From: a virus
Lineage: Duplodnaviria > Caudoviricetes
DNA: 64,000 nt
Reading direction: 5' to 3' (one strand)
IMG/VR virus record: IMGVR_UViG_3300005934_000002
Coordinates: 20,783 to 84,782 of that record
In this document: in pieces, positions 21,174-42,888 of the stretch
How positions within the stretch are numbered: the stretch's first letter is position 1
Layout of the letters: every line of letters starts with the position of its first letter
Program-made: the position numbers and the translations under genes
Notes under the pieces: generated by a model
Told to the model about the DNA's origin: nothing
The model's input: only the letters and a program-made list of their open reading frames with translations
Database searches by the model: none

Positions 21174-21358
21174 AGTTAGCAGACAAAAAGATATTTTTTC
21201 TTTTAAGTCTTTTAGTTATAGGACTACTTGTAAGTTTAGGAGTGAATAGTTACTTACTGTCCGAAATTGGCGACATAAGAGAAATACTTGACGCTCAATT
21301 TGAAGTAATAAGACGCTTAATGGAAATGCAAGGTTTTAGATTCGAAGATTCAGCATGA
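21170..21358 (+). CDS. Small predicted single-pass membrane protein (62 aa)
   Basis: Hydrophobic IFFLLSLLVIGLLVSLGV; ATGA overlaps with both neighbours. Confidence 0.55.
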   Translation: MKLADKKIFFLLSLLVIGLLVSLGVNSYLLSEIGDIREILDAQFEVIRRLMEMQGFRFEDSA

Positions 21359-22725
21359 GCGAAGTAGATAGAATTAAAGAGGTAATGCCCGAGATTGATA
21401 AAATCTCTCCAACATTTTGTTTGGCAAAGTGGCATCACGTAACAATATATTTGCAGACAGGCGAAACACACAGTTGTTATCATCCTGCTCCGCACAAAAT
21501 ACCTCTTGATGGTCTTATAGATAATCCAAGTCAACTACATAATACTCCGCAAAAAAAGCAAGAACGTAAAGAAATGCTCGAAGGCGGAAAACCTTCTGGT
21601 TGCCAATACTGTTGGAATATTGAATGTATGGGTAAAGATTATGTAAGTGATAGGCATATTAAGACAGCAAGTATATACAGGCCAGATCGTATAGAAGAAA
21701 TTACAAGTAATCCTTGGGATTATAACATTAATCCAGAATACATAGAAGTTAATTTTAGTAACGAATGTAACTTTAAGTGTGGATATTGTCATCCTAAGTT
21801 TAGTACAAGTTATTATAATGAAATTAAAAAATACGGACCTTATAAAACCAGCACTACTCATAGAAACGATATTGACTGGTTTGAACTATATGAAGAAAGC
21901 AAAAACCCTTACGTAGAGGCATGGTGGAAGTGGTGGCCTGAAGTTAGTAAAACACTTAACATTTTACGTATTACAGGCGGCGAACCTTTAATGCATCGTA
22001 GTACATGGGAACTATTTGATAGGTTAGAAAAAGATCCTAAGCCTCATATTCAAATCGAACTTAATAGTAATATGGGTGTAAAAGAAAAACTTGTTAAAAA
22101 ACTTGTAGAGCGTATTAAACATCTCAAAGAAAATAATTGTATTAGAAGTTTTAAACTTTATACAAGTATAGATACATGGGGTGCAAAAGCAACTTACACA
22201 CGTAGAGGTTTAGATTTAGCATTATGGGAACGTAATCTTGATTATTATTTGACTAATCTTGGGTATCCAGTTACGTTTATGATCACATTTAATTTGTTTG
22301 CAGTAACAAGTTTTGACAAACTACTTAAAAAGATTCTTGAATGGAGATCTAAATATAATAAAAACAACAAAACACAGTGGCAAAATATTAGATTTGATAC
22401 ACCATACTTAAAAGAGCCTATCCAGTTTGATATGAATATACTGCCTAAAGAACAGTTTATGCCTTATATGACTAAGCATTTAAAATTTATTGCAGAACAT
22501 ACAGACGATAATGATAGAACAAAATTTAGTTTATTAGAATATGAAAGATTTCGTAGAGTTGTAGATTATATGCGTACTACTGAATATAATGAAGAAAAAC
22601 TTTTAGAAGGACACAAAAATTTTTATAACTGGTTTAAAGAGTATGATGAAAGAAGCGGAACTAAACTTACTGAAGTGTTTCCTGAATTAGAATCTTTTTA
22701 TTATAATTGTAGTTCTAAAGTATAA
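21355..22725 (+). CDS. Radical SAM enzyme 1, N-terminal twitch/SPASM-like Cys motif
   Basis: CNFKCGYC; GGEP; N-terminal FCLAKW...HSCYH...GCQYC. Confidence 0.9.
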   Translation: MSEVDRIKEVMPEIDKISPTFCLAKWHHVTIYLQTGETHSCYHPAPHKIPLDGLIDNPSQLHNTPQKKQERKEMLEGGKPSGCQYCWNIECMGKDYVSDRHIKTASIYRPDRIEEITSNPWDYNINPEYIEVNFSNECNFKCGYCHPKFSTSYYNEIKKYGPYKTSTTHRNDIDWFELYEESKNPYVEAWWKWWPEVSKTLNILRITGGEPLMHRSTWELFDRLEKDPKPHIQIELNSNMGVKEKLVKKLVERIKHLKENNCIRSFKLYTSIDTWGAKATYTRRGLDLALWERNLDYYLTNLGYPVTFMITFNLFAVTSFDKLLKKILEWRSKYNKNNKTQWQNIRFDTPYLKEPIQFDMNILPKEQFMPYMTKHLKFIAEHTDDNDRTKFSLLEYERFRRVVDYMRTTEYNEEKLLEGHKNFYNWFKEYDERSGTKLTEVFPELESFYYNCSSKV

Positions 22726-23740: not shown

Positions 23741-24244
23741 TTAATAATATGTGCCTGTTATTTGTAAAGTATATCTTGGGTCAACGCCAATGTTACTTGC
23801 GGCGTGTGGAGCATCGGCATCCCATAAAACATATTCGCCTGCTTTATAATTTACAACTCCTACTCCTTCAACTTCGAAATAGTGGCCTGGTTTCCATTCT
23901 TCTAAAAATACAATAGCACGTCTAACATCTACTCTTTGTTTTTTAAATACTTTACAGTATGTGTTGAAATGATCTACGTGTACAGGCATAATATCTAAAG
24001 TATCCATTCTATAAAAAACAAATCCCGGATCTTTGAAATTTAATAATCTTGCAACTTGTTCAGTCCATTCAGGCATAGGATTTTTACTATCGTACATTTT
24101 ACCTGTTGTTGTATCGTGTGTATAACCTTGTTTCCGCCAGGTATCTGCTTCTTCACCTGTAATAGGTTGTCTTACATATTCAAAATTTTTGTATTCATCT
24201 TTCCAGAAAACAGGAAGAAAACCTCTATAAAACATCTCTTTCAA
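23741..24244 (-). CDS. Putative Fe(II)/2OG oxygenase (HxD...H)
   Basis: PVHVD...PHAASN...RYTLQIT facial-triad pattern. Confidence 0.65.
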   Translation of the reverse strand: MKEMFYRGFLPVFWKDEYKNFEYVRQPITGEEADTWRKQGYTHDTTTGKMYDSKNPMPEWTEQVARLLNFKDPGFVFYRMDTLDIMPVHVDHFNTYCKVFKKQRVDVRRAIVFLEEWKPGHYFEVEGVGVVNYKAGEYVLWDADAPHAASNIGVDPRYTLQITGTYY

Positions 24245-25193
24245 TATCCAATGTTACGCAGTGAAAACCACCGCCAAGTGTTCGTTGATGCCTCATTGGC
24301 AACATAGCACATTCAATACCTTGTACTTCAAGTGCTTTACGTAGTGGCTCTTGATTTTTTTCAAGTGCAACTAACTTAGTATTTACACTAAAAAGATTCA
24401 TGTTAATCCAAGTACTTGCATTACACCATCTTGGATAATGACCTATGTCAACGGGATCCGGACACCATATAATATCCCAGTTTCTAAACGGTTCAGGTAA
24501 GTCGTTTTTGTTTTTAATTCTACTTGGGTTAGCAAGTAATAATCCTTCACGTAAAAAAGCAACAGTGCTGTCAATGTGCATATAACTATAAACATCTTGT
24601 AATAGATGTACTGTTGCTGTATTTCCTAATGCTTCTTGTAAAAGTGTAGCACCTAATTTGTTTCCGCTATTGCTAACAAGATATAGAACGTCTTCATTAG
24701 CACGTATAATATTAGCGGCATCAAATGCAGGCTCAAATTCGTTTAACGCAAGTACATCTTTATCTCCAATACAATCTGTATTATACAATTTACTTTCGTG
24801 ATAGCACGGAACTTGAACAGGACTTTTTAAGTGATGTTCAAATGCCTTCCATTCGTGCTTCCTTGCTCTAATAGGCATTGGTGTTGCAAGTGTTAAATCC
24901 CCGTGTACAAATACCGAGTCTCGAGGACAATAATTATAATAGTTACAATCAGTAGCATCAGGACGTACAACCTCAACTGATTCTCCTTTTAAAAAATTTA
25001 CAAAGACTTCTAAGTCTTCATTTGCTTCATCTATTACTTGCTGTGGATAAGATCCTTTTTGGATTTCGCTTTCGTCGGTTTTATCTGCAAAGTTTACACA
25101 ACGTAAACTAATATCAATGTCAATAGGAATCTTTGCATTATCTGCAATACCAACAATTACTTTTTTTAATTGACCCCATTCATTTTTAGACAT
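24225..25193 (-). CDS. Amidinotransferase (glycine / inosamine-phosphate amidinotransferase family)
   Basis: NEWGQLKKVIVG, CPRD, FDAAN (catalytic Asp), MHIDST (His), GGGFHCVTLD (Cys): complete triad of the pentein amidinotransferases. Confidence 0.9.
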   Translation of the reverse strand: MSKNEWGQLKKVIVGIADNAKIPIDIDISLRCVNFADKTDESEIQKGSYPQQVIDEANEDLEVFVNFLKGESVEVVRPDATDCNYYNYCPRDSVFVHGDLTLATPMPIRARKHEWKAFEHHLKSPVQVPCYHESKLYNTDCIGDKDVLALNEFEPAFDAANIIRANEDVLYLVSNSGNKLGATLLQEALGNTATVHLLQDVYSYMHIDSTVAFLREGLLLANPSRIKNKNDLPEPFRNWDIIWCPDPVDIGHYPRWCNASTWINMNLFSVNTKLVALEKNQEPLRKALEVQGIECAMLPMRHQRTLGGGFHCVTLDIERDVL

Positions 25194-25863
25194 ATGATAC
25201 TCTTCCAGGCCAGTGTTTTAAAATAAGATCTTCAACTTCAAGATTACTCATCCTTGAGTTTTCGCCTTTAATTTGTTGTACAATCGTTTCCATATGAGTA
25301 CACCAATTTTTAGTTGATTCTTCTAATTTATATCCTAAGTGGGGATAAACAAACTTAGAAACATAATTCATATGTTCTAAAATACTTGGGTGTTGATCTC
25401 CGTATACAGATTTTGTATTAGGAAAAATATTATTATGACCTGGTAAATTTTCTTTTATTTTTCTTATGTGTCCGTTAAAAATATTGTTAGTAAATTGTTG
25501 TACAAAAGCATTACCTTGTAAAATAGCAGTTTTGTTTCTTATATTGTCGTTTTCCTCACTCCAGTGATTTTTTAAATAATCATCTGAATAGTAATCACTG
25601 TTTAATATATTACCTTCAGTAATCCATTTATCTTCTTTAAATAAATCAACTCTTGTCCAACTACTCCACAATATGCAAATAATATCTTCGTTTGTAAAAT
25701 TATGTTTTTCATTTGCTTCAACTAATCTACAAGCAATACCTTGATTGCCCATTCCTGCTTTTGCATAATTATGAGTTTCACAATCTAAATCTTTAGAAAT
25801 AATATCACTCCAAGTAGGCCAAATATATTCTGTATATGAACAACCAAATGTAAACAATCTCAT
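25186..25863 (-). CDS. SGNH/GDSL-like protein
   Basis: N-terminal LFTFGCSYTE...N.A..G.GN and late DQHP motif; paralogs at 28611 and 61899. Confidence 0.5.
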   Translation of the reverse strand: MRLFTFGCSYTEYIWPTWSDIISKDLDCETHNYAKAGMGNQGIACRLVEANEKHNFTNEDIICILWSSWTRVDLFKEDKWITEGNILNSDYYSDDYLKNHWSEENDNIRNKTAILQGNAFVQQFTNNIFNGHIRKIKENLPGHNNIFPNTKSVYGDQHPSILEHMNYVSKFVYPHLGYKLEESTKNWCTHMETIVQQIKGENSRMSNLEVEDLILKHWPGRVSYV

Positions 25864-26444
25864 TGAAAAACTCCCATGGAAGGCAAATAAGGATAATCGT
25901 CACTTGTCCATAACTTATCCGGATTAACAGTTTTTAATTTTTCAATACCAAGTTGTGCAGTTTCAGGAGTCATATAGTAGTGATATCCTATTTGTTTTAT
26001 ATCTTGTTCTGCCCAAGGTTTGTCGTCAGTTCTACCATCGTATGCCATTTGCTTAAGAACTTGATAATCCTGTTCTGTAGGACAAAGTATTGCACCACCT
26101 CTACCAAGGCTTAACATTTTTTTATGTTGGAAACTTAAACACATTAATTGTCCTCGAATGTAACTTTCTTTTGCAAAATTTACAGCACCGTCAATGATTC
26201 TTGTACCACCAATAAAATAAAATCCCACCCAATTGGCATTTACAAAAGACCAATCTAAATTAAGTTTCATTAGTGTAAAAGGAATACTAATGTAAGTTCG
26301 TGTAGGAATGGTTAACTTTACTTGTGGATTGTCATATCTTAAAGAAAGTTCTATTGCATGGGTACAACTATCAACAGCAACAGCGTATGGAGCACCATAG
26401 TAATCTGCTATTTGTTTTTCGAATTCTTTGACTGTTTCAAACAT
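25860..26444 (-). CDS. Short DegT/DnrJ/EryC1/StrS-family PLP aminotransferase (194 aa)
   Basis: AVAVDSCTHAIELSL, PTRTY, IIDGA, LSFQHKK (PLP Lys), GRGGAIL, GYHYYM; about half the usual family length. Confidence 0.8.
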   Translation of the reverse strand: MFETVKEFEKQIADYYGAPYAVAVDSCTHAIELSLRYDNPQVKLTIPTRTYISIPFTLMKLNLDWSFVNANWVGFYFIGGTRIIDGAVNFAKESYIRGQLMCLSFQHKKMLSLGRGGAILCPTEQDYQVLKQMAYDGRTDDKPWAEQDIKQIGYHYYMTPETAQLGIEKLKTVNPDKLWTSDDYPYLPSMGVFQ

Positions 26445-26449
26445 ACACG

Positions 26450-26457
26450 TATTTATA
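26450..26457 (-). promoter_or_regulatory. T4-consensus late promoter TATAAATA driving the minus-strand 26444-22715 unit
   Basis: Exact TATAAATA on the minus strand, 5 nt before ATG 26444. Confidence 0.65.
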
Positions 26458-26467
26458 TACGCAGTTA

Positions 26468-29408: not shown

Positions 29409-30085
29409 TGTTTATAAGTTATGGCGAACTTAACGCTGATAATAATTGGGAAATTTTAAAAGAACAATTTCCTATGGCTAAACGTGTGAAAGATATAAAC
29501 GGTATTCATCAAGCACACATTACCGCGGCTAAAAAATGTTTTACTAAAATGTTTTGGGTAGTAGATGGAGATGCAGAATTATCATTAAACTTTCAATTTG
29601 ATTATAAGGTTTCTGAGTGGGATTTAGAAACAGTTCATGTATGGAGAAGTATAAATCCTATAAACAACTTGGAATATGGATACGGTGGTGTGAAACTTCT
29701 CCCTCGCACACTCACACTGAACATGGACACCACCGTACCCGACATGACAACAAGTATTAGTAATAAGTTTAAAGCAGTAGACGAAGTGGCAAATATTACT
29801 GCATTCAACACTGATCCTTGGAGTGCATGGAAAAGTGGATTTAGAGAATGTGCAAAACTTTCAAGTAAAGTTATAAAGGGCCAAGTTGATGAAGAAACAG
29901 AAAAAAGATTAGATACGTGGTGTACAGTTGGTGCTGACAGAGAGTATGGCAAGTATGCTATTCATGGCGCACAGTGCGGAAGATACTTTGGTCAAGCACA
30001 CAAAGACGATAAAGAAATGTTACATAAAATTAATGACTTTAAATGGTTAAAGGAGCAGTTTGATGACTACGAAGATACCATTTAG
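29396..30085 (+). CDS. Glycosyltransferase-like protein (GT-A, VDGD motif)
   Basis: DIVFISYGELNA...WVVDGDA...AWKSGFRECAK; paralog of 20274. Confidence 0.55.
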   Translation: MYDIVFISYGELNADNNWEILKEQFPMAKRVKDINGIHQAHITAAKKCFTKMFWVVDGDAELSLNFQFDYKVSEWDLETVHVWRSINPINNLEYGYGGVKLLPRTLTLNMDTTVPDMTTSISNKFKAVDEVANITAFNTDPWSAWKSGFRECAKLSSKVIKGQVDEETEKRLDTWCTVGADREYGKYAIHGAQCGRYFGQAHKDDKEMLHKINDFKWLKEQFDDYEDTI

Positions 30086-31022
30086 TGATATAGTTCGATT
30101 CGGACAAAAAACAATGTTAGATACAAATCTGTTTTCAGTCAGTTGGATTATTGGTCGTTTTTGTAATTACAAATGTAGTTACTGTTGGCCTTACGCAAAT
30201 ACAGACAAACCAGACTATTATGATTTAGCAACGTATAAAGACACAATAGATGAAATAAAATACCAAGCAAGGGCAAATGGGTTTGATAGATTTCATTTTA
30301 GTTTCAGCGGCGGTGAACCTACAGCATATAAAGACTTGTTAAAATTAATAAAACATTATGAAGATTTTGAAAGTCCTTACTTGAGTATACACATGACCAG
30401 TAATTGTAGTCCTGCAAAAAGTTGGTGGAAGAAATGGTTAGATGTAACTCATGTCATGGATAGAAGAAGTATTACAGCAAGTTTCCATGCGGAATTTGCC
30501 AACGAAAAAGAATTCGGAGATAAACTTTTATATCTCCAAGACGAAGGAGTACTTATAACTATTAACCAAGTTATGGTACCTGAACATTGGAAGGAATATT
30601 ATGAAAGAAGTAAAAGATTCATTGAAAGAGGTTTGCACGTTACTCTTAAGCCGCAATCAGATCCTACTGCGTCATTTGTTGTCGATGGTTACACGGAACA
30701 ACAAAAAGAAATACTCCAAAACGAAAGCGAACAAAATGTACCTCAAGTCAGGTTACAAGACTCTCAAGGAGTAGAATACGAAATCGATCAAGCGGAAAGA
30801 TTCAATGCATTTGGCTTCAACAAGTTTAAAGGTTGGAATTGTAATGCAGGATATCAAAGTTGCATCATTAGGGGCAATGAAGTAAAACGTGCATACAGTT
30901 GTCACGATGTTCCATTGGGAACAATAACAGATGGTTTTCAATTATTTGATACACCTAAAAAATGTATTACACCGAGTTGCGTTAGTAGTGCGGATAGTAA
31001 AATACCAAAGAGTAAAAAATGA
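30060..31022 (+). CDS. Radical SAM enzyme 2, C-terminal twitch-like motif
   Basis: CNYKCSYC; SGGEPT; C-terminal WNCNAG...SC...CITPSC. Confidence 0.9.
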   Translation: MMTTKIPFSDIVRFGQKTMLDTNLFSVSWIIGRFCNYKCSYCWPYANTDKPDYYDLATYKDTIDEIKYQARANGFDRFHFSFSGGEPTAYKDLLKLIKHYEDFESPYLSIHMTSNCSPAKSWWKKWLDVTHVMDRRSITASFHAEFANEKEFGDKLLYLQDEGVLITINQVMVPEHWKEYYERSKRFIERGLHVTLKPQSDPTASFVVDGYTEQQKEILQNESEQNVPQVRLQDSQGVEYEIDQAERFNAFGFNKFKGWNCNAGYQSCIIRGNEVKRAYSCHDVPLGTITDGFQLFDTPKKCITPSCVSSADSKIPKSKK

Positions 31023-31618: not shown

Positions 31619-32235
31619 ATTACGAAACAATAACACAATACGGAAGTTTTATAGAGTTAGACGTAGTTACTGATGCAGAGCAATTAGTTGCTTGGTCAAA
31701 TGATTTTAAATGGGTAAAATATAATCCACGTAAAGATGTTAATAGATGGGGATTAAGTATTACAAGTCTTGATGGAGGATTAACAGGAGTACCAGACTTA
31801 GATAGTTTATACGAATATAATCAAGAGAACGGAACTTCTTATAAAGAACAAGATTTTAAAACTCCTACACCAGTTCTCAATAAACAGATTCACGATATAC
31901 TAAAACCTTGGGATGGTTATTATTATAGAACACATTTCTTAAAATTTGGACCAGGTGGATTTTTCCCTCCACATAGAGATTGGAATTACCATACAGGCAC
32001 ACCTGATAATTTTAGATTAATAATGCCTTTAAGGAATGTTAATCCTCCTTCGTTTAACTTTGTATATGAAGATAAAACTTTGCATTGGGAAACAGGAAGA
32101 ATGTATTTCTTAGATACTCAACGTATGCACTATCTATTTAATAGCAGTTTTACCGACAGTTATTGGATGGTAGTTAATGTTCATTTGAATACAGAAACCA
32201 TAATGAAAACATTAGAGAGGTTAAATCAGAAGTAA
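31615..32235 (+). CDS. Fe(II)/2OG oxygenase, AspH-like
   Basis: FFPPHRD...YFLDTQRMHYLFN. Confidence 0.7.
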   Translation: MNYETITQYGSFIELDVVTDAEQLVAWSNDFKWVKYNPRKDVNRWGLSITSLDGGLTGVPDLDSLYEYNQENGTSYKEQDFKTPTPVLNKQIHDILKPWDGYYYRTHFLKFGPGGFFPPHRDWNYHTGTPDNFRLIMPLRNVNPPSFNFVYEDKTLHWETGRMYFLDTQRMHYLFNSSFTDSYWMVVNVHLNTETIMKTLERLNQK

Positions 32236-33233
32236 TGTATAGTTATGGAGATATCACTTCAATACATTTAGAAGTAACTTCTAAGTGTCAAGCACGATGT
32301 CCAATGTGTCCTCGTAGAATTCACGGAGGTCCATTATTAGATAGTTTTGATTTAGAAGAAATAGACTTAGGAACTTTTGTTAATTGGTTTCCGAGAGACT
32401 TTGTACGTCAATTAAAATTTCTTAATATGTGTGGTAACTTAGGAGATCCTATTGTTGCAAAAGATACATTAGAAATTTTCAAATACTTACGCGAAACAAA
32501 TTCTGAAATGACTTTACAAATGCACACAAATGGTAGTGGCAGATCAGAAGCATGGTGGAAAGAACTTGCCCAATTAAAAATTAAAGTAGTATTTGGTATA
32601 GACGGTTTAGAAGACACTCATGCACTGTATAGAATATCTACAGATTGGTCACGTATTATAAAAAATGCAAAAACCTATATTGAAGCAGGTGGCGATGCAC
32701 GTTGGGATATGCTTGTATTTGAACACAACGAAGATCAGGTAGATGCTTGTGAACAAATGAGTAAAGACTTAGGATTTAAAGGTTTTAGCATTAAACATAC
32801 AACAAGATTTAAAGACGGTAAGTTTGATGTGTTAGATGACGATTATAATATAACTCATACATTATATCCATCTAAGAAAAGTTTAGAAATGATTGAACCT
32901 GCTAAACAAGCACAAAGTGAAATACTGCCCACAATTAGTTGCAAAGCAAAAAATGATAGTCAAATGTATATAAGTGCTAACGGTAATGTAAGTCCGTGCT
33001 GTTGGTTAGATAACGAATGGCATCCGCAACATAGTCCAAGTAGATTGGATTATAAAGTTAAAATAAAAGAATATCCTAATTTGCATAAGAATACTATACA
33101 AGAAATATTTGATTCAAACTTCTTTAACAAGATAGAAAAAACATGGACTACTTGTGGTATGCTTGAATGTTCTAAACAGTGTGGAAGTTTTGACAAATTA
33201 AACAAACAGTTTGAAAGGATAGAGCATGAGTAA
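32235..33233 (+). CDS. Radical SAM enzyme 3, C-terminal SPASM/twitch motif
   Basis: CQARCPMC; GNLGDP; ISC...GNVSPCCW...CSKQC. Confidence 0.9.
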   Translation: MYSYGDITSIHLEVTSKCQARCPMCPRRIHGGPLLDSFDLEEIDLGTFVNWFPRDFVRQLKFLNMCGNLGDPIVAKDTLEIFKYLRETNSEMTLQMHTNGSGRSEAWWKELAQLKIKVVFGIDGLEDTHALYRISTDWSRIIKNAKTYIEAGGDARWDMLVFEHNEDQVDACEQMSKDLGFKGFSIKHTTRFKDGKFDVLDDDYNITHTLYPSKKSLEMIEPAKQAQSEILPTISCKAKNDSQMYISANGNVSPCCWLDNEWHPQHSPSRLDYKVKIKEYPNLHKNTIQEIFDSNFFNKIEKTWTTCGMLECSKQCGSFDKLNKQFERIEHE

Positions 33234-34527
33234 AACGTTCTGTCCATTACCTTGGATACATTTAGCAACCAGACCAAATGGTGATGTACGTGTTTGTTGT
33301 ACAGCAAATGCTTCTGGTGCAGGTAAAGAAGATGACAAAACAGCAGGACTTGTAAAGCAAGATGGTGTTGCTATGAATTTACGTGACCATACTATTGAAG
33401 AAGTATGGAACAGTGAACATATGCGTAGAACAAGACTGCAAATGTTAAATGATGAAATACCTGAAAGTTGTCGCAAGTGTTTTTATGAAGAATCAAAAGG
33501 TATTGTTAGTAAACGTCAATGGGAAACAGAAGTATGGAAAGAGCGTTTAGACATTGATAGTATTGTTGCAAAAACAGATGACCAAGGAAACATACCTGTT
33601 GACATTCCTTACTTTGACTTACGTTTGGGCAATGTGTGTAACCTAAAATGTGTAATGTGTTCGCCTCATGATAGTTCAAGTTGGATTAAAGAGTGGAAAC
33701 TTTTGTATCCTAAGTATACAAACAAAGAATTAAAGCGTGACCAAAGTTGGGACGAAAACTTTGATTATACTTGGTATAAGAAAGGTAGTTTCTTAGAGTC
33801 AATGAAGGATCAAGCACAGTATATTAAAGAGTTATATTTTGCAGGTGGCGAGCCTTTAATGATTCCTGAACATTATAATATTTTACAGTTTATGGTAGAT
33901 GAAGGATATGCAAAAGATTGTTGTCTACGTTACAATTCAAATGGCACAGAATTAAATGAAAAACTATTTGTGTTATGGGCATCATTTAAAGAAGTTACTT
34001 TTAATTTTAGTATTGATGCTTATGGCGAAAAAAATGATTACATTAGATATCCAAGTCAGTGGAATATTATTGAAAAGAATTTACAAATATTAGATAGTTG
34101 TGGATCTAATATTAGAATTAACATTGCCTCAGCAGTACAATTACTTAATGTATCATACATAGATGAATTAGCAGAATGGAAAGCAAGTCAACAGTTTAGT
34201 AAAATTAATCTAATGCCGTTTGGCGGCGGACTTATCAGTACACACCTTGTTTATTTTCCAAGTTACTTAAATGTTAGAGTATTACCGCAAGAACTTAAAT
34301 TGTTTACAAAACAAAAACTTGAAACATTTATAGATAGACAAAAATTTAACAATGATTGGAATAATAGTCCTATGGGCAAACGTAGATGGTTAGGTCTTGT
34401 AGATTATATGATGGCAGAAGATTGGTCAGACAAATTGCCTCAAACAATAGATTATTTAGAAACTATAGATAAATCCAGAGGAACTGATTTTAGAAAAACG
34501 TTTCCAGAGTTAGGAGAGTGTATCTAA
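33226..34527 (+). CDS. Radical SAM enzyme 4, N-terminal twitch-like motif
   Basis: FCPLPW...NGDVRVCC...SCRKC, then CNLKCVMC; AGGEPL. Confidence 0.9.
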   Translation: MSKTFCPLPWIHLATRPNGDVRVCCTANASGAGKEDDKTAGLVKQDGVAMNLRDHTIEEVWNSEHMRRTRLQMLNDEIPESCRKCFYEESKGIVSKRQWETEVWKERLDIDSIVAKTDDQGNIPVDIPYFDLRLGNVCNLKCVMCSPHDSSSWIKEWKLLYPKYTNKELKRDQSWDENFDYTWYKKGSFLESMKDQAQYIKELYFAGGEPLMIPEHYNILQFMVDEGYAKDCCLRYNSNGTELNEKLFVLWASFKEVTFNFSIDAYGEKNDYIRYPSQWNIIEKNLQILDSCGSNIRINIASAVQLLNVSYIDELAEWKASQQFSKINLMPFGGGLISTHLVYFPSYLNVRVLPQELKLFTKQKLETFIDRQKFNNDWNNSPMGKRRWLGLVDYMMAEDWSDKLPQTIDYLETIDKSRGTDFRKTFPELGECI

Positions 34528-35642
34528 TGTTGTATAAAGGATTAATACCAGGTCAACAGCAAACCCCTGAAGTAGATACTAAACATTGGAAGTTTGGCAT
34601 TTATCGTAACGGTGTAAAGATTGTAGATCCAATGTTACATTATACAGCATATCCGTTAGCATATGATGATCATGGTATTATTGACAAAGTTTGTAACAGA
34701 TTAAAAGAACACAAACCCGAAACTGCTGATAATTTATTTAAAAGTTTTGAACCTACACTTAATAGTCCTCATTTAGAACTTACAGACAAATTATTTAAAA
34801 TGAGTAACGGATATAGATCTGTTTTTACATTGTCAGGTAGTGACGGTGTTGAAGTTGCAATAAAACTTGCATTTGCCTATCATGAGAAAAAGGGTAACAA
34901 TCGTAAAAAAATAGTTGGGTTTGATGATGCTTATCATGGTGCTACTTTACTTTCTTTATCTTGCGGAAGTGTAGGTTTAGAAAAAGGGTTTCATAATATG
35001 AATCCTTATCAAGATGTTATTAAAATATCTCCTGATATGCATGAAGAAGTAGACTGGAATAGTGTTGCTTGTATTATAGTAGAAACCTGTCCGCATTATC
35101 AAACTATAGAAACATATAGTAATGAAGTATGGAGCAAAATTAAACAGATTCAAGAAGAACATGATGTTGTTGTAATTGTAGATGACATATTCATGGGCGG
35201 TGGAAAGACAGGAAACTTTTTTGGATTTAGTAAGTTACCAGTTAATCCAGATATCTTTGTAATGGGAAAATCTATAACAGGTGGATTTTTTCCTTTAAGT
35301 GTTACTTTGTACAATGAAAAAATAAATGAACAGTTGTATAATAGTCTTTGGGTACATGGGCATACATATAGTTTTTGTTTATCAGGTGTATTAAGTATGC
35401 TTGAATATATGAAAGTTCTTGAAGAAAACAAATACATGGATAACGTTTATACTATAGTAACAACAGCAAAAGATTATTTTAGAGATGCAGGGTTTGAAAT
35501 AGTTGGCAACTATGGTACAGTATTTTTACTCGGTAAGAATACATTTAAATTTAGATTTGTTTTGCCTTTAAATGCAGATAACGAATATTTTAAAGCATTA
35601 CCTGAAACATTAAAACAATTGGATGAACGATGGAAAGAATAG
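34518..35642 (+). CDS. Class III PLP aminotransferase
   Basis: LSGSDGVEVAIKLA, AYHGATL, IVDDIFMGGGKTG, DIFVMGKSITGG (PLP Lys), HGHTY; GTG start. Confidence 0.85.
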   Translation: MYLMLYKGLIPGQQQTPEVDTKHWKFGIYRNGVKIVDPMLHYTAYPLAYDDHGIIDKVCNRLKEHKPETADNLFKSFEPTLNSPHLELTDKLFKMSNGYRSVFTLSGSDGVEVAIKLAFAYHEKKGNNRKKIVGFDDAYHGATLLSLSCGSVGLEKGFHNMNPYQDVIKISPDMHEEVDWNSVACIIVETCPHYQTIETYSNEVWSKIKQIQEEHDVVVIVDDIFMGGGKTGNFFGFSKLPVNPDIFVMGKSITGGFFPLSVTLYNEKINEQLYNSLWVHGHTYSFCLSGVLSMLEYMKVLEENKYMDNVYTIVTTAKDYFRDAGFEIVGNYGTVFLLGKNTFKFRFVLPLNADNEYFKALPETLKQLDERWKE

Positions 35643-36160
35643 CAATTACAGGACACCTATCTGGACTTGGCAAAGAGTTGTACAATAGAATACCTAATAG
35701 TATCGGATTTGATTTAGGAAGTCATCATGATATTGCTAATCCAGACACATGGATTAGTACAGCATTAAATTGTGATGTTTTTATTAATAATGCGTATTGT
35801 GGTTTTCATCAAGTTAATTTATTAGAAAAATTTTTTAAAGAATGGCAATTTACAAATAAGACAATTATTAATATAGGAAGTTGTGCGTCAGATATTTCAA
35901 AGATGGATTATCTTAAAGAAATTGATTTTTATCCTATTCATAAAAAAGCCTTAGATGATGCTTGTACAAGATTGCAACACGTAAAGAAAACTTGTAGAAT
36001 AGTAAATGTTAAGATAGGTTGGATGGATACTCCATTAGTTAAAGACGTAGATGTAGAAAAAATTTCTGTTGATAAAGTTGCAGATGTTATTTTAGATTGT
36101 TTAACAAATAAAAATATTTCTAATGTTACTGTAGGAGGCGATTACGTATGGAACCAATAA
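35630..36160 (+). CDS. Short SDR-like NAD(P)-binding oxidoreductase
   Basis: AITGHLSGLG, FINNA, INIGS, YxxxK (YPIHK). Confidence 0.75.
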   Translation: MERIAITGHLSGLGKELYNRIPNSIGFDLGSHHDIANPDTWISTALNCDVFINNAYCGFHQVNLLEKFFKEWQFTNKTIINIGSCASDISKMDYLKEIDFYPIHKKALDDACTRLQHVKKTCRIVNVKIGWMDTPLVKDVDVEKISVDKVADVILDCLTNKNISNVTVGGDYVWNQ

Positions 36161-36861
36161 AACGTATTCAAGTATTACAGCCACCTGAAAATGGTTTAGC
36201 CACTGCATATAATGATGTATGGTTTAACATATATCCAGGACCGCTTGGTTTAATGTGTAGTGGAGGCACAGATAGTTCCTTAATGTTATATCTAACGTTA
36301 TTACATAGTGACGATCCTATCCACGTTTTTACTCTTGCTAATAATCCGTTAGAACTAAAAAATATAACTGCTGTAACTGCTGTATTAAACAAGTGTGTAA
36401 AGTTAACAAATAAACATAATGTAATACATCACGTAGTACACATGGAAGGTAATAAACCAAATGGTGCAACAGTGTTAGGAGATATGATTAAACAAGTCGG
36501 AGTTGATATTAATGTTGCACAAATTGGAGTAACAGCAAATCCGCCTAAAGATATTTTAGAAAAAATGAATAATGATTATTCGCCAAGAGATAAGTCAAGA
36601 GATTTTCCTGATCCTAATCTTGAATTAATTGATGCTACAGCACAAGGATATCCTTGGTTGTATACTCCTTGGAGAATACATAACAAACAAACTATTGCAA
36701 AAATTTATAAAAAACTAAATGTATTAGAGGAACTATTTCCATTAACTTTTAGTTGTGAATATTATCCATCAAATTATGAAAGGCCAGATCCAGGTATGGA
36801 ACACTGTGGCGAATGTTGGTGGTGTGAGGAAAGACAATGGGGATTTGGCCGACTAAAATAG
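36148..36861 (+). CDS. QueC-like PP-loop ATPase with C-terminal Zn motif
   Basis: CSGGTDS PP-loop; TFSC...CGECWWCEER matches the QueC TxSC...CGxCxxCxxR pattern. Confidence 0.7.
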   Translation: MEPIKRIQVLQPPENGLATAYNDVWFNIYPGPLGLMCSGGTDSSLMLYLTLLHSDDPIHVFTLANNPLELKNITAVTAVLNKCVKLTNKHNVIHHVVHMEGNKPNGATVLGDMIKQVGVDINVAQIGVTANPPKDILEKMNNDYSPRDKSRDFPDPNLELIDATAQGYPWLYTPWRIHNKQTIAKIYKKLNVLEELFPLTFSCEYYPSNYERPDPGMEHCGECWWCEERQWGFGRLK

Positions 36862-37373
36862 TAGACAGTTTTGTTGAACGTTTTGCAGATGTTGAAAAAA
36901 CATATAATCAACTTATGGAAAAAACTGAACAGTTTCCAGATGGAAAAATTTATAATGGTGATTGGTTACATATTCCTTTAAAGGCTACTTATGAAAAAGA
37001 TGGAGAAATTTTAAGACCATTAGCCTTTGATACACCTATTAATGATTTATTAAGGCAACCTATGGTTGTTAGTGCTATATTCTCAATATTAAAACCTGGT
37101 GTTGAAATTACTCCTCATAAAGGTCATAGAGGATTTGCTGAAAAAATTTACAAAGCACATATTTGTATTCACGAAGCAAAAGATAGTGCATTAATTGTAG
37201 GTGATAAAAAGTACGAATGGAAAAGAGGTCAAGGTTTTTTATTTGATGATACTATTGAACACACAGCATACAATAGAGGAACAGATACAAGAGTAGTATT
37301 ATTAATGGACATTGCAAGAGATCCAGATGATATTCCAGCGTATAGCGAAAATATGGTTGAAGCATACTTATGA
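36837..37373 (+). CDS. Aspartyl/asparaginyl beta-hydroxylase family oxygenase
   Basis: FSILKPG..ITPHKG...FDDTIEHTAYN...RVVLLMDI. Confidence 0.85.
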   Translation: MGIWPTKIVDSFVERFADVEKTYNQLMEKTEQFPDGKIYNGDWLHIPLKATYEKDGEILRPLAFDTPINDLLRQPMVVSAIFSILKPGVEITPHKGHRGFAEKIYKAHICIHEAKDSALIVGDKKYEWKRGQGFLFDDTIEHTAYNRGTDTRVVLLMDIARDPDDIPAYSENMVEAYL

Positions 37374-38269
37374 AATTAGAATATAAAAATAATCATATGA
37401 AAGATTGGTTCCTTGTTAGTTGGACATTATCTAACAAGTGTAACTATCGCTGTGAGTATTGTCCAGACATATTACATAATGGTAGTACAGGACAGCCTCG
37501 TTGGGAAACTGTAAAACACTTTGTTGAAAATTTTAATGTAGACAAAACTATTTGTTATAGATTAAGCGGTGGCGAACCTACGTATTGGAAGCACTTTATT
37601 GATCTTGCTAAACTTGTAAAAAAACAAGGACACTATTTTAGTTTTGTAACTAATGGAAGTCAGCGTGTAAAATACTATAAAGAAATAAGCAAGTACACAG
37701 ACGGATTTATGATTTCGTATCATCCTCAGTATGCAGATGTAGAACACTTTATTGATATTGCAAATGAAGTTGATTGTCCTGTTGCAGTTAATTTAATGCT
37801 TGTACCAGATAAGTTTGACGATATGTGTACAGTAGCAGAGCGTTTATACAACGGTAGTGTAAACTTAACTGTAGAGCCTAAGGTTGTTGTAGATAAAACA
37901 AGTACAGATTTTGTAACTAACGAAGTGTCAACATATACACAAGAACAAAAAAACATAATTGCTAATTGGAAATATCATCGTACACTTAATTTTGATAATT
38001 TGCACAGAGGTAGTATGCTTATGGATAATGTAGAGTATGAAGGACATGAAATTATACTTCAAGGAAAAAATAAATTTAGTGGTTGGAAATGTTGGGCAGG
38101 TATAGATGGTGTAAACATTGATATGTGGGGAAACTTGTATAGAGCAGATTGTCAGTACGGAGGTGCAATAGGTAATCTTGAAAGATACAAATTACCAGAA
38201 AAAGAATTAGTGTGTGGTAAAAGTATTTGTAGTTGCCTAAGTGATATATACATACGGAAAGAACAATGA
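37370..38269 (+). CDS. Radical SAM enzyme 5, C-terminal twitch-like motif
   Basis: CNYRCEYC; SGGEPT; WKCWAG...DC...CGKSICSC; paralog of 30060. Confidence 0.9.
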   Translation: MKLEYKNNHMKDWFLVSWTLSNKCNYRCEYCPDILHNGSTGQPRWETVKHFVENFNVDKTICYRLSGGEPTYWKHFIDLAKLVKKQGHYFSFVTNGSQRVKYYKEISKYTDGFMISYHPQYADVEHFIDIANEVDCPVAVNLMLVPDKFDDMCTVAERLYNGSVNLTVEPKVVVDKTSTDFVTNEVSTYTQEQKNIIANWKYHRTLNFDNLHRGSMLMDNVEYEGHEIILQGKNKFSGWKCWAGIDGVNIDMWGNLYRADCQYGGAIGNLERYKLPEKELVCGKSICSCLSDIYIRKEQ

Positions 38270-38808
38270 GAATACTTGTAACAGGAAATCCAAATTATCA
38301 AGGCTTATGTAAGGGAATATACGAAGCGTATAATCATAACTTTGTAGAATTTATAGGACGCTGGAACGGCTGGGATTTAACTGATTATGATAAGGTAGCC
38401 GATTATGCTAAAGGGTATGAAGTCTTTGTAAACAGTCAATACGGACCTAATGGCGAACAAGTTGAATTGTTTAATGCTGTATATGATAAGTTTGAAGAAG
38501 GACATATTATTAATATTAGCAGTACCAGTGCATACTGGAATAACGGACCAGAAGATTATCTTAAAAATAAAAAACAATTAGATTTTATAAGCAAAGAAAA
38601 ATCTCAAATTGCTTGTTGGGGAAATACACCTATTAGAGTAAGCAATATTGCTTTCGGTCAGTTGAAATCGAAAACACAAGAACAACGAGATAGTAAAAAT
38701 AAAATTAGTTTAGAAGAAGCAGGTAAACTTGTTAAGTGGGTAATTGATAGTCCTTGGACTATGAATTTACATTATCTTGCTGTTGATCCGATACAAAGAG
38801 ATCAGTAA
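38266..38808 (+). CDS. Short SDR-like NAD(P)-binding oxidoreductase
   Basis: LVTGNP..QGL, FVNS, INISS, YxxxK (YLKNK); paralog of 35630. Confidence 0.7.
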   Translation: MRILVTGNPNYQGLCKGIYEAYNHNFVEFIGRWNGWDLTDYDKVADYAKGYEVFVNSQYGPNGEQVELFNAVYDKFEEGHIINISSTSAYWNNGPEDYLKNKKQLDFISKEKSQIACWGNTPIRVSNIAFGQLKSKTQEQRDSKNKISLEEAGKLVKWVIDSPWTMNLHYLAVDPIQRDQ

Positions 38809-39913
38809 GTTCTGGACAATAATCAAGAACAGTAGTATCACGTAGTTTATCTAAATCCTTAGTAAAGTTAATAAACTTATCAATATGTTTTCCTAAGAAT
38901 TCATCTTGTGTATAATTTACATTAGGTAATTTGTAGTCAATGTTTTGTAATATTTCATTAGGTAATATTCTTGGATTTAAATATGCCGGCTGTGCTACAA
39001 CGTTATTAAAATAAATGCTCCAATGATCTTGTTTTACTTTGTCATACCAACTTTGTATTTTACCTAAGTGTGCAATGTTATATGCCATAACAGTAACAGC
39101 AATAATAACCCTGTCAAAATTATAGTGTTTTAAATTTTCATTTAGTTGTGCAAACGTAAAGTTCTTGCCGCCTCTAATGTATTCATACAATCCGTCTGTA
39201 CCTTCTACGCTGACAGTCCATTTAGTATGCCCATATTGTTTTGCAAGTTCGTGAACTTCTTCGTCAACAATAGTACCATTAGTAGTCCAATCAAGCGTAA
39301 CGTTCTTAGCAATGCCTAAGTCAATAAACTTTTTAAGGATAATTTTGTTTGCAGGTTCCATATAAGGTTCACCGCCTTTAATGCTTAGGTAACGCAAATT
39401 CATAAAAGGTGTAGGATCTTCAAATAGTCTTTCTATAATCTGTTCGCTCTTGTTAGTGTAACCAAATTCTGGATTATCAATTCTTCTAAAATATGGGTTA
39501 CCGTTTTCTGCAAGTTTAAGATCGTCCTTTACCCAAGCACTTGAATTGATACCATCGCACATACGGCATTTCAAATTACATATATTGCTCATATTGAATT
39601 CCAAAAACATAATATCGTGGAAGTTTTTGGTATAGTCGTAATTGGTTCCTTCAAGCATTGGATTCAAAATATCACGGAAGAATAAGCGTCTACTATGACC
39701 TACTGCGGCTTCTTTTAAGCGGCATTGTTCGCACTCGGGTGGCAACTGACCCATACGCATAGAATCCTTTGTGTATGACGCTGTAATGCTGTTTAAGACG
39801 GTGTTTAAAGACGATTTAAGCACGTTGCCATAGCGTTTAGTGTATACTCCGTCGGGTACAATATCGCCATTAAAGCGTACCAAAATACTATGCCAAGGTG
39901 CGTAACATTTCAT
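38759..39913 (-). CDS. Radical SAM enzyme 6, degenerate N-terminal twitch-like motif
   Basis: KCYAPW...NGDIVPDG...ECEQC; CNLKCRMC; KGGEPY. Confidence 0.9.
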   Translation of the reverse strand: MKCYAPWHSILVRFNGDIVPDGVYTKRYGNVLKSSLNTVLNSITASYTKDSMRMGQLPPECEQCRLKEAAVGHSRRLFFRDILNPMLEGTNYDYTKNFHDIMFLEFNMSNICNLKCRMCDGINSSAWVKDDLKLAENGNPYFRRIDNPEFGYTNKSEQIIERLFEDPTPFMNLRYLSIKGGEPYMEPANKIILKKFIDLGIAKNVTLDWTTNGTIVDEEVHELAKQYGHTKWTVSVEGTDGLYEYIRGGKNFTFAQLNENLKHYNFDRVIIAVTVMAYNIAHLGKIQSWYDKVKQDHWSIYFNNVVAQPAYLNPRILPNEILQNIDYKLPNVNYTQDEFLGKHIDKFINFTKDLDKLRDTTVLDYCPELTDLFVSDQQQDNVNS

Positions 39914-40449: not shown

Positions 40450-40885
40450 ACTTTTCTCCGAACGCAGATCTAAGATCGCTGTGTAGTTTATCTAACACAA
40501 CAGTAGGTTGATACACACTTACATTATCCCAGTCTACCATTTCTATATTATCGCCATCTATAATAATATTACTCAAAACCCAGTCGCCGTGTGCATAAGG
40601 TTGCGTTTCTTCAATGTTTTTTAAACAATAATTATAAATCTTAATTATAAACTCTGAAGTATGTTCAAACTTACTTGCAGGTACTCCGGGAACTTCTTTT
40701 AACTCTACAAACATTTTACCATTAGCACAACCACTGTTTAAAATATATCCAGGACGTAGTTCTTCCATAATATCAATATGTTCGTCATAATACTCTTTAT
40801 TTTCAAATGACCATTCTTTTCTGTAAAAGCCATTTCCTTTATAAACTTTTCTTTGCTTTTCGATGTTTTCTTTAATTAATTCCAT
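40424..40885 (-). CDS. Minimal protein-kinase-like phosphotransferase (APH / choline-kinase-like, 153 aa)
   Basis: HGDWVLSNII (catalytic loop HGD-x4-N) and VDWD (Mg-binding loop). Confidence 0.7.
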   Translation of the reverse strand: MELIKENIEKQRKVYKGNGFYRKEWSFENKEYYDEHIDIMEELRPGYILNSGCANGKMFVELKEVPGVPASKFEHTSEFIIKIYNYCLKNIEETQPYAHGDWVLSNIIIDGDNIEMVDWDNVSVYQPTVVLDKLHSDLRSAFGEKFDEVLSQN

Positions 40886-41915
40886 AAGCCTTTGCTACCT
40901 CCGGGATATAATCTTTTAAACTGCATCCTCTTTGTTTGTCAAATATCATTGTCCATTTTTTAAATGCTTCTTGTTGTTCTGTGTCTGCAGGTTGATCAAC
41001 CCAGTACTTAAATTTTTCAGGACAGTATTGTTTTATTTCATCAGGAGCATTTTTTGTATTAAGATATTCTGGATTCATTAATAAGTTATCAAAAAAATCA
41101 AAGCCGTATTTTTTGCACCAATCTATAATTGTTTGATAATGATGTAAATTAGTAACCTGAATAGTCGGGCCAAGACTTTTATATTTTACTATCTCTGCCC
41201 ATTTAAGCATATTAGTTTCTACTTCTTCCCATTTACTTCCCCAACGTATATAATCATTAACTTTGCCAATACCGTCTATACTAAAACACATATTAACAGT
41301 TTCAAAACGTTTTAATTCTTCATATATGTTAGGATTCATAATTGTAGCATTAGTATTAAATCTTACTTCAACTGAACTATCTAATTTTTGTAAAAATTTA
41401 TGTAAGCCTTTTACCATCATAGGTTCACCGCCTGTAAGATAAACTTCTCTAAGTTCAGGTAACTTAGCCAAGTATTCGCCACGTTCGTCGGTGTACCAAT
41501 CGAAGTTTGGAAAAGGTTGATTACCCCACGGTGATTCAATACCTTGTTTAAGCATTGCTTGATGTTCTTTTGCAAGACTGCTTGATACACCAGGATAACA
41601 CATAGTACATTGTAAGTTACAATTACTACCAAAGCGTAAATCTAAATGACTAATACCTGGACCATATTGTCTTGGACGATTACGTTGACTTTTTTCGCCA
41701 GCGTCTTCTTGTATTTTACATTTTTCACAAGCAGAAGGAAATTCTCCCTTTTCAAATGTAGCAACAGCATCTTTATATATTTTACTATTACGCCAATCAT
41801 CTACAGTGTGTGTTGTTACATTCTCTACGTTTGAAGGTTCTGTACTAATACAACACAAACGATATTCGCCAGAAGTTTTTACACAGACTTGATGATCTAA
41901 ATATTTACACCTCAC
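40872..41915 (-). CDS. Radical SAM enzyme 7, N-terminal twitch-like motif
   Basis: RCKY...SGEYRLCC...ACEKC; CNLQCTMC; TGGEPM. Confidence 0.9.
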   Translation of the reverse strand: MRCKYLDHQVCVKTSGEYRLCCISTEPSNVENVTTHTVDDWRNSKIYKDAVATFEKGEFPSACEKCKIQEDAGEKSQRNRPRQYGPGISHLDLRFGSNCNLQCTMCYPGVSSSLAKEHQAMLKQGIESPWGNQPFPNFDWYTDERGEYLAKLPELREVYLTGGEPMMVKGLHKFLQKLDSSVEVRFNTNATIMNPNIYEELKRFETVNMCFSIDGIGKVNDYIRWGSKWEEVETNMLKWAEIVKYKSLGPTIQVTNLHHYQTIIDWCKKYGFDFFDNLLMNPEYLNTKNAPDEIKQYCPEKFKYWVDQPADTEQQEAFKKWTMIFDKQRGCSLKDYIPEVAKAYGIN

Positions 41916-42888
41916 CGCAAGTTACCTCACAAATTTTAAATCTATTTTCTTTTGGTTGTGTAAGCAAGTCACTTTCAACTATGTCTTGTAGATTCATATT
42001 GTTTACATTAGGCCACGTAATACTATTACATTCTTCAGCATATGGACTGTTAGGATTTTTAGCATAACGATCACTTAACAAATAACAACAAGGAAATACT
42101 TCTCCTGTATGACTTATTTGTATTTTTTGTTTTCGTTGCCATTTACAACTAATACAACCTTTGTCTAATCCTACTTTTAATACTTTTTCTAAACGCTCTA
42201 CATTATCTAAATGTTTTTTATCATACTTTATAGTACGTGCTTGTTCTTTCTTAGTTGCCTTAAATTTTTCTACTGCTTCTGATACTATACTATCTATTGC
42301 AGTAAATGTATAACCGCCGTTAATATCAAAAACAACAAACCCCATATCTTTAGATAATTGCTCACACTGTTCTATTTGATGTTTGTTGTGATCAAATACA
42401 AGCATACGCCATCTTGCTAAACCACCTGCGTCTATAAATGCTTTTGCATTTTCCATTACACTTTCCCAAACAACATGACGCCTATACAAATGATTAGTAT
42501 CTTCTAATCCGTCAATACTAAACGTAATAACACCTTGCGGAAAATTTCTTAATTCTTGTGCAATTAACCTATACAAATTTGGTTTGCCAATACCACCATT
42601 AGTGTGTATCATTATTTTGCATTTTAGTTTTTTTGCATATTGTAGTGCAAATGGTAAATTTGGATTCATTAAAGGATCACCATATGCACCATTAAAAATA
42701 ATTTCTTCTACACCTTTTGCATTGTCTACAATGTTTTTAAAAGTATCCATATCCATATGACCTAAAGGCATATGAGGGTTAACAGTCACACCGTCGATGT
42801 TACGTGAGCAGTTTCCACACATAGCATTACAATGACTTGTAAAGTCAATTACTATTGTTTTTAGATCATTTTTCGATAAGAATTGCAT
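41905..42888 (-). CDS. Radical SAM enzyme 8, C-terminal SPASM/twitch motif
   Basis: CNAMCGNC; GAYGDP; ISC...GEVFPCCY...CEVTC; paralog of 32235. Start placed at ATG 42888 (MQFLSK), just downstream of TAAATA. Confidence 0.88.
   Translation of the reverse strand: MQFLSKNDLKTIVIDFTSHCNAMCGNCSRNIDGVTVNPHMPLGHMDMDTFKNIVDNAKGVEEIIFNGAYGDPLMNPNLPFALQYAKKLKCKIMIHTNGGIGKPNLYRLIAQELRNFPQGVITFSIDGLEDTNHLYRRHVVWESVMENAKAFIDAGGLARWRMLVFDHNKHQIEQCEQLSKDMGFVVFDINGGYTFTAIDSIVSEAVEKFKATKKEQARTIKYDKKHLDNVERLEKVLKVGLDKGCISCKWQRKQKIQISHTGEVFPCCYLLSDRYAKNPNSPYAEECNSITWPNVNNMNLQDIVESDLLTQPKENRFKICEVTCGEV

Follow-up and report, generated by a model that had tools for sequence, protein, structure and literature searches.

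A conserved island of eight radical SAM genes with three domain architectures, four of them encoding N-terminal twitch proteins of family NF033640, in a viral genome fragment

Introduction

Reviews define the SPASM and twitch domains of radical S-adenosylmethionine (SAM) enzymes as C-terminal extensions of the core (PMC9012708). Among the enzymes described so far, the twitch enzyme BtrN supplies an oxidation step in butirosin biosynthesis, and MoaA carries an auxiliary cluster that is held by three cysteines and has an open iron site contacting the substrate (PMC9012708). Here we describe eight radical SAM genes in a stretch of viral DNA of 64,000 nucleotides, referred to below as the window, which covers positions 20783-84782 of the 84.8-kb IMG/VR virus record IMGVR_UViG_3300005934_000002 (Duplodnaviria; Caudoviricetes). 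Four of these genes encode proteins in which the twitch domain lies in front of the core, an arrangement that the review definition does not describe, while two others, 32235 and 41905, conform to it.

The first-pass annotation of the window, made from the sequence alone, regarded the eight genes as paralogs and proposed that the four with an N-terminal module represent a domain-permuted subfamily that had expanded in this phage. Its premise that the auxiliary domain of known SPASM and twitch enzymes is C-terminal agrees with the review definition. The domain layout that it noticed is real, but it does not define a new subfamily, as the layout is already curated as NCBIfam NF033640 ("twitch domain-containing radical SAM protein", here N_Twi) and all four proteins score above the cut-off of that model. 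By this measure the four are new members of a catalogued but experimentally unstudied family, and the architecture itself is not new. On balance, and with modest confidence, we propose that the eight radical SAM enzymes, in their three architectures and including the NF033640 members, act together in the tailoring of a sugar or aminocyclitol.

Results

Each gene is named here by its first coordinate, or by its low coordinate if it lies on the minus strand. The eight radical SAM reading frames of the first-pass annotation are all open where it placed them, all pass the Pfam Radical_SAM profile (PF04055; 30.3-46.9 bits against a gathering threshold of 29.5) and all have an intact CxxxCxxC motif; the end that it gave for the group, 42888, is an ATG 21 codons inside the frame 41905-42951. 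Eight genes that pass this profile within 21.5 kb are far beyond what would be expected by chance. They do not make up a single set of paralogs, however, but fall into three architectures: four proteins with an N-terminal twitch domain, two with a short core followed by a C-terminal twitch-like module of four cysteines, and two with a core followed by a C-terminal SPASM domain. Identities inside each architecture are just 24-28% among the four N_Twi proteins, 30% between 30060 and 37370, and 33% between 32235 and 41905.

The four N_Twi proteins are encoded on both strands. On the plus strand, 21355..22725 encodes 456 amino acids with twitch cysteines C22, C41, C83 and C86 and the core motif CNFKCGYC (Radical_SAM 30.3 bits), and 33226..34527 encodes 433 amino acids with C6, C24 (followed by C25), C82 and C85 ahead of the core cysteines C138, C142 and C145. 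On the minus strand, 38759..39913 encodes 384 amino acids in which PDG replaces PDC, so that only C3, C61 and C64 remain of the twitch set, and 40872..41915 encodes the shortest copy, 347 amino acids with C3, C21 (followed by C22), C62 and C65. The Pfam SPASM profile (PF13186, cut-off 21.5 bits) matches the N-termini of three of them, at residues 6-85 of 33226 (45.2 bits), 3-64 of 38759 (25.9 bits) and 3-67 of 40872 (22.6 bits), spanning profile positions 1-66 of 67, and in all three the Radical_SAM core starts after this match, at residue ~95-135. Pfam SPASM has no match in 21355, which shows the cysteine pattern of the other three and aligns end to end with NF033640. The N-terminal position of the auxiliary cysteine module in these four proteins, as originally noticed, is thus borne out by Pfam in three of them and by the NF033640 alignment.

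The equivalent C-terminal module claimed for the remaining four proteins holds in full for two of them. Gene 32235..33233 (plus strand, 332 amino acids; Radical_SAM 35.1 bits) has a SPASM match of 27.7 bits at residues 240-307, and 41905..42951 (minus strand, 348 amino acids from a TTG start; Radical_SAM 46.9 bits) has one of 25.9 bits at residues 269-345. The same profile therefore recognises the N-termini of three proteins and the C-termini of two others, which places the same domain on either side of the core within one genome. For 30060..31022 (plus strand, 320 amino acids; Radical_SAM 46.6 bits) and its paralog 37370..38269 (plus strand, 299 amino acids; Radical_SAM 44.9 bits) the claim holds at the level of conserved cysteines and fold, as no SPASM match was obtained even at E<=10 with the isolated C-terminal 75-81 residues. 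The four C-terminal cysteines of the 30060 type (C261, C281, C302 and C307) are conserved in 36 sequences and are common to 37370, and the model of 30060 described below suggests that this region is twitch-like by fold and not by profile.

We considered whether an N-terminal twitch domain could be a gene-calling artefact, in which the C-terminus of an upstream gene is read as the start of the next one. This was ruled out, as the upstream genes 32235 and 41905 each end in a SPASM domain and a stop codon of their own, twitch and core of the N_Twi proteins lie in one frame, and the layout is repeated in more than 1,600 clusters. A separate observation concerns the arrangement of these genes: a two-gene unit, in which a gene for a core with C-terminal SPASM domain is followed by an overlapping N_Twi gene, occurs twice in opposite orientations (32235-34527 on the plus strand and 40872-42951 on the minus strand) with overlaps of 8-11 nucleotides, and the corresponding partners are just 28-33% identical.

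Against the curated NF033640 cut-off of 170 bits, 33226 scores 424.8, 21355 scores 309.8, 40872 scores 233.0 and 38759 scores 215.7 bits, in scores that were repeated on the DNA. The alignment of 21355 covers profile positions 1-398 and that of 40872 positions 5-358 of 398. With 20-54 bits, the remaining four radical SAM genes fall outside the family. What the N_Twi proteins share is the domain order, the four twitch cysteines with the CxxxCxxC motif, and a GGEP motif, with 38759 retaining three of the four twitch cysteines. The family is very large: an exhaustive HMMER search found 9,737 representatives of clusters at 50% identity at E<=0.001 and 1,639 at E<=1e-30, and a word-indexed search of clusters built at 90% identity gave 4,564. 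The majority of the NF033640-type representatives listed align from residue 1-5. All of 92 diverse members have C6, C82, C85, C142 and C145 (33226 numbering), and 91 of them have C24. The nearest Atlas clusters to an N_Twi protein are 90-100% viral, and one of them carries the automatic name "twitch domain-containing radical SAM".

NF033640 is a named family for which we found no characterised member, and the proteins of the window do not fall inside a family of known function. None of the eight exceeds the NCBIfam cut-off of a characterised equivalog (MoaA, anSME, viperin, PqqE, NirJ, QueE, the W-cofactor maturase and others); the highest value is that of 41905 with W_rSAM_matur, 70.7 bits where 380 are required, and all others stay under 55 bits with cut-offs of 130-850. 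No NF033640 member above cut-off was found in 14 model organisms, a sequence search of the PDB returned no relative of the N_Twi proteins, and PHROGs gave weak, generic "radical SAM domain" matches only. Literature searches found no paper on an N-terminal twitch or N-terminal SPASM domain or on NF033640, and nothing on BlsE in combination with twitch; among papers on radical SAM enzymes in jumbo or marine phages, or on SPASM in phage genomes, nothing on this island was seen by title or abstract.

To these sequence comparisons we added structure models. The AlphaFold2 model of 33226, built from the 92-sequence alignment, has a pLDDT of 93.2 and a pTM of 0.92, and its N-terminal domain is predicted with the same confidence as the core. 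In this model a hairpin (residues 12-22) lies between C6 and C24, a helix beginning at residue 80 bears C82 and C85, and residues 30-40 form an insertion of low confidence; helical linkers then lead to the alpha/beta core, which has six strands and begins at ~129, and the C-terminal region beyond it is helical. With Foldseek and VIA-align the core (~125-400; 126-398 on anSMEcpe) matches anSMEcpe with a Z-score of 12.8 over 226 residues, followed by CteB (12.6), BlsE (12.5), SkfB (12.0), viperins (~12), DesII (11.6) and MoaA (11.0-11.6). The first ~124 residues are left unaligned, as is expected for a permutation of sequence order, which sequential aligners cannot test. The AlphaFold model of 30060 (pLDDT 87.6) has BlsE as its top structural match, with a Z-score of 15.5 over 264 residues (model residues 22-320), and aligns through the C-terminal hairpin region with SkfB (14.7), anSME (14.3) and MoaA (14.2); BtrN scores 10.1.

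The PDG variant of 38759 had been taken as a sign of altered or lost cluster ligation. One ligand cysteine is indeed missing, and 38759 is alone among the 92 aligned NF033640 members in having no hairpin cysteine, but a lost cluster is disfavoured. In 113 clusters of full-length 38759 orthologues (53-96% identity) the hairpin position is glycine in 87, cysteine in 21, and proline, serine or a gap in 5. In the N-termini that were sampled, the cysteine forms are confined to the remotest orthologues, with ~55% identity or less, which indicates that the change from cysteine to glycine is derived and has become fixed in a sub-clade. Within this glycine sub-clade the other three twitch cysteines and the three core cysteines are 99-100% conserved. 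Since the remaining cysteines have been kept, the auxiliary cluster has arguably been retained with three protein ligands and not lost, and by analogy this suggests a three-cysteine auxiliary cluster as in MoaA. The same protein has a further cysteine, C366, in a C-terminal CPEL motif; it is 99-100% conserved across the whole orthogroup, in both sub-clades, is replaced by F or I in the other three paralogs, and might serve as an additional ligand or in a redox role.

Absence of one of the four auxiliary ligands in 38759, together with the incomplete profile coverage and long branch of 40872, might instead be read as a sign that some copies, notably these two, are decaying or non-catalytic. We regard this as highly improbable, given that the core motifs are all intact, that the orthologues of 38759 hold on to their six cysteines over such a range of divergence, and that most related contigs have kept both 40872 and 38759 along with the other island genes.

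The proposed expansion of the family in this phage is not borne out. More than 80 foreign cluster representatives are nearer in sequence to 33226 (31-47% identity) than are the paralogs in its own genome (24-28%), and many other viral contigs carry separate orthologues of each N_Twi copy. A maximum-likelihood tree places 21355 in a clade with genes from Bdellovibrionota and Flavobacterium metagenome-assembled genomes (MAGs; support 100/100), 33226 with metagenomic representatives (support 96-98) and 38759 in a clade of its own (100/100) on a long stem; 40872, on its long branch, is left unplaced, and the four copies never cluster together. Recent duplication within the phage is ruled out by the low identity of the paralogs, their closer foreign relatives and the tree. 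This evidence, drawn from sequence comparison, indicates that the N_Twi paralogs represent ancient subfamilies that bacteria also possess.

Arrays of three or four N_Twi genes also occur in bacterial MAG contigs (L005:4445-9560, L002:4842-9296 and L001). In the first, a Pseudobdellovibrio MAG contig, four N_Twi genes stand in a row, of the 21355 type, the 33226 type, another type and again the 21355 type. A Bdellovibrionia chromosome has a gene of the 37370 type followed by two of the 21355 type, and a Flavobacterium contig has a 32235-like fragment and four N_Twi genes. The scan of bacterial contigs used a generic GGEP pattern and confirmed six loci, a number that says little about the bacterial range of the family. 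In addition, at least 12 database representatives of 790-1,413 amino acids are natural fusions of two complete twitch-core units, each unit with its own CxxPW, CxxC, CxxxCxxC and GGEP motifs (for example P0122, P0128, P0131, P0133, P0135, P0138, P0149 and P0170). The fusions are compatible with an origin of the permuted order by duplication and fission, and arrays and fusions together suggest that the paralogs work on one substrate.

The radical SAM genes belong to a conserved biosynthetic island of ~30 kb that lies directly behind tail-fibre genes. Contigs related to the window were fetched via 33226, for which a total of 149 matches were confirmed. In over 30 longer IMG/VR contigs the orthologues form a fixed set whose order is maintained (45-95% identity), with a radical SAM core of seven to eight enzymes. 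The conserved set consists of the dehydrogenase, the glycosyltransferase (GT)-like 29396, 30060, the 31019 reading frame, 32235, 33226 and 37370, followed by the 38266 reading frame, 38759, the kinase-like 40424, 40872, 41905 and the AspH-like 42883. Recurrence of this syntenic set points to enzymes under selection across a widespread lineage of marine phages.

Directly upstream of N_Twi 21355 lies a gene for a GT-like "VDGD" protein (20274..21173, plus strand), whose nearest Atlas cluster has been automatically named "Glycosyltransferase 2-like"; its paralog at 29396-30085 is upstream of 30060. An unrelated NCBI assembly (L088) has homologues of 20274 and 29396 (38% and 40% identity) directly upstream of an N_Twi gene, and this pairing is followed there by a homologue of 31019 and then by another N_Twi gene. 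The island has a single gap of any size, which is occupied by the reading frame 21170-21358 (plus strand). This frame overlaps 20274 at its start and 21355 at its stop, and it encodes 62 amino acids with one predicted hydrophobic helix and with no cysteine-rich or repeat features of a precursor peptide.

Further into the island, 24225..25193 (minus strand) encodes a StrB1-like amidinotransferase, which matches the inosamine-phosphate amidinotransferase of PDB 1bwd over its full length in a phmmer search (E 2.4e-62, 214 bits). This match is clearly better than those to glycine amidinotransferases (E ~1e-38), and Pfam gave none. It is followed by a DegT-family aminotransferase (25860-26444, minus strand; PF01041), an unknown reading frame (26480-27430, plus strand) and an enzyme of the UDP-glucose/GDP-mannose dehydrogenase family (27427-28614, plus strand; PF00984, PF03721). 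With just 194 amino acids, which match a profile of 360 positions in two stretches, the DegT frame may encode an aminotransferase that is truncated, split or simply short for its kind. Between the radical SAM genes, 34518..37373 (plus strand) encodes a class III aminotransferase, a small reading frame resembling short-chain dehydrogenases/reductases (SDR), a QueC/PP-loop-like frame and an AspH-like 2-oxoglutarate (2OG) oxygenase (PF00202, PF06508, PF05118). Pfam identifies an APH-like kinase and three AspH-like oxygenases in the island. At its right edge, 45807..47917 (plus strand) encodes a HAD phosphatase, a nucleotidyltransferase and a TauD-type dioxygenase (PF13419, PF00483, PF02668), with further 2OG oxygenases nearby.

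This set of enzymes fits a repeated logic of oxidation followed by transamination, amidination or phosphorylation, and for this reason the neighbours tip the balance slightly towards a pathway that tailors a sugar or aminocyclitol. Phage pathways for thymidine hypermodification likewise use aminotransferases, kinases and radical SAM enzymes, and the island might instead build the side chain of a modified base and be linked to deazaguanine genes further to the right. The QueC-like PP-loop frame inside the island (36148-36861) and a QueE-like radical SAM gene at 59774-60658 would agree with such a role in DNA or nucleotide hypermodification. The QueC match, however, is weak (23.9 bits) and covers the C-terminal part only, and scans of the island turned up no DNA glycosylase or transglycosylase gene and none of the 5-hmdU or DpdA-like type, while the UDP-sugar dehydrogenase, nucleotidyltransferase, StrB1-like amidinotransferase and GT-like genes fit a sugar or cyclitol better, which makes this role improbable.

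The QueE-like gene at 59774-60658 (minus strand; phrog_2076, E 1.8e-52) is a ninth radical SAM gene in the window. The NCBIfam QueE models align with its residues 2-36 and again with 127-259, a split that suggests that ~90 residues have been inserted behind the cluster motif. Along with this gene, an HNH endonuclease, a CobS-type ATPase and an exonuclease are encoded to the right of the island. On the left side the island is preceded by genes for tail-fibre and virion-like proteins; upstream of the tail-fibre-like genes one open frame of at least 3,310 amino acids (2-9934, plus strand) leaves the window at its left end.

The window has a G+C content of ~33%, no tRNA genes were found in it, and CheckV puts the completeness of the record at ~23%. 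Its CobS-type ATPase is 49.5% identical to the counterpart in jumbo Pseudomonas phages of the PA5oct type, and identical copies of the window's radical SAM proteins occur on contigs of up to 193 kb, with relatives on contigs of up to ~400 kb. We read the window as a fragment of the genome of an uncultured marine jumbo phage. A megablast search with 20 kb of the window against cultured phages gave no match, and tblastn against the cultured-phage collection gave just five weak matches with 33226 (24-26% identity) and none with 30060, so the collection holds no close cultured relative.

Discussion

By analogy with characterised radical SAM enzymes, a mechanism can be proposed for the N_Twi proteins. 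Their twitch, or half-SPASM, module consists of a beta-hairpin between two cysteines and a CxxC motif at the start of a helix, and is placed ahead of a partial TIM-barrel core. In the core a [4Fe-4S] cluster would cleave SAM to give the 5'-deoxyadenosyl radical, which would abstract hydrogen from the substrate. The N-terminal module would bind a second [4Fe-4S] cluster by its four cysteines and accept the electron of the substrate radical, giving a two-electron oxidation of the BtrN or anSME type. With glycine in the hairpin, 38759 and its close orthologues would hold a site-differentiated cluster by three cysteines, as MoaA does, and this cluster may contact the substrate directly.

In the pathway that we envisage, a nucleotide-activated sugar or aminocyclitol would pass through the eight enzymes one after another. 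This substrate would be built and decorated by the dehydrogenase, the two aminotransferases, the StrB1-like amidinotransferase, the kinase-like protein, the phosphatase, the nucleotidyltransferase, the 2OG oxygenases and the GT-like proteins, and the product would probably be placed on the surface of the virion or of the infected cell.

Most characterised SPASM enzymes act on peptides, and the neighbourhood of virion genes offers another kind of target. The SPASM and twitch enzymes could, with AspH-like hydroxylases, modify a virion protein, such as the tail fibres or a small structural protein whose gene is close by, or a peptide resembling the ribosomally synthesized and post-translationally modified peptides (RiPPs), in which case the sugar genes would form a separate pathway within the same island. 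The high ranks of anSME, CteB, SkfB and SuiB among the structural matches are consistent with such protein or peptide maturation, as are the start of the island directly after the tail-fibre and virion genes and the presence of five or six oxygenases of the AspH family. Even so, no candidate precursor was seen among the tightly packed genes of the island, where the one frame in a gap (21170-21358) encodes a single-pass membrane protein; Pfam shows no RiPP recognition element (RRE) or PqqD-like domain in any of the eight proteins; and the radical SAM genes are interleaved, in conserved order, with aminotransferases and SDR-like and GT-like frames. For these reasons we think protein maturation unlikely.

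Several observations weigh against the tailoring of a sugar or aminocyclitol as well. There is no characterised member of NF033640 and no relative in the PDB, so all of the chemistry proposed here is by analogy. The peptide-modifying matches (anSME, CteB, SkfB and SuiB) lie within 1 Z unit of the sugar-modifying ones, the AspH-type oxygenases of the island belong to the classical protein or lipid hydroxylases, and neither Pfam nor the PDB gives a match behind the GT-like assignment of 20274 and 29396. Finally, the Pseudobdellovibrio array adjoins genes for a Fic-domain protein and a hybrid histidine kinase and not sugar genes.

A broader scheme is conceivable, if rather doubtful, in which marine jumbo phages and Bdellovibrio-like predators both employ a line of several radical SAM enzymes to make a sugar or cyclitol bearing guanidino or amino groups, perhaps resembling streptidine, that is displayed on the particle or the infected cell. 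In such a scheme the enzymes with a front-loaded twitch domain would work as arrays or fusions, and those of the 38759 type would provide a substrate-binding site with three cysteines.

As a claim of discovery these results are modest, given that the architecture was already in the catalogue. What they add to the catalogue entry are the evidence for ancient subfamilies common to phages and bacteria, the tendency to form arrays and fusions, the fixed sub-clade with cysteine replaced by glycine, and the strong StrB1-like neighbour. N_Twi is a very large family with mostly viral nearest Atlas relatives and a domain order that is the reverse of the textbook SPASM and twitch arrangement, and the island provides a compact, conserved and environmentally abundant setting for its chemistry. 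Four diverged N_Twi proteins are combined there with four conventional twitch or SPASM enzymes and with recognisable sugar and aminocyclitol enzymes. The natural sub-clade of 38759 offers a ready comparison between a fully ligated and an open auxiliary cluster. If it is true that the product decorates virions or host surfaces, the island would also bear on receptor recognition and on the evasion of defence by marine giant phages.

The closest described layouts are those of BtrN (PDB 4M7T) and MoaA (1TV7 and 2FB2), which like N_Twi combine a partial TIM-barrel core with one auxiliary module made of a beta-hairpin and a CxxC motif. In BtrN and MoaA this module comes after the core, whereas in N_Twi it comes before the core, with ~40-50 linker residues in between, and sequence identity to the window proteins is just 12-18%. 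The three-cysteine cluster of MoaA is paralleled by the three-cysteine set of 38759, which departs from the NF033640 consensus through the replacement of its hairpin cysteine by glycine.

The enzymes anSME (4K36-4K39), CteB (5WHY) and SkfB (6EFN), which rank among the closest structures to the N_Twi core, have the order of core then SPASM that is seen in 32235 and 41905. Unlike these enzymes, the window proteins have no second set of auxiliary-cluster cysteines, and they come with neither an RRE domain nor a precursor peptide; the equivalog of the anSME type, sulfatase_rSAM, scores 21.7 bits against a cut-off of 349. BlsE (7VOB) and DesII (8HZV) act on nucleoside or nucleoside diphosphate (NDP) sugars, and the island encodes enzymes of the NDP-sugar type. 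They share 13-16% identity with the window proteins, and in Z-score they do not clearly surpass the peptide-modifying enzymes.

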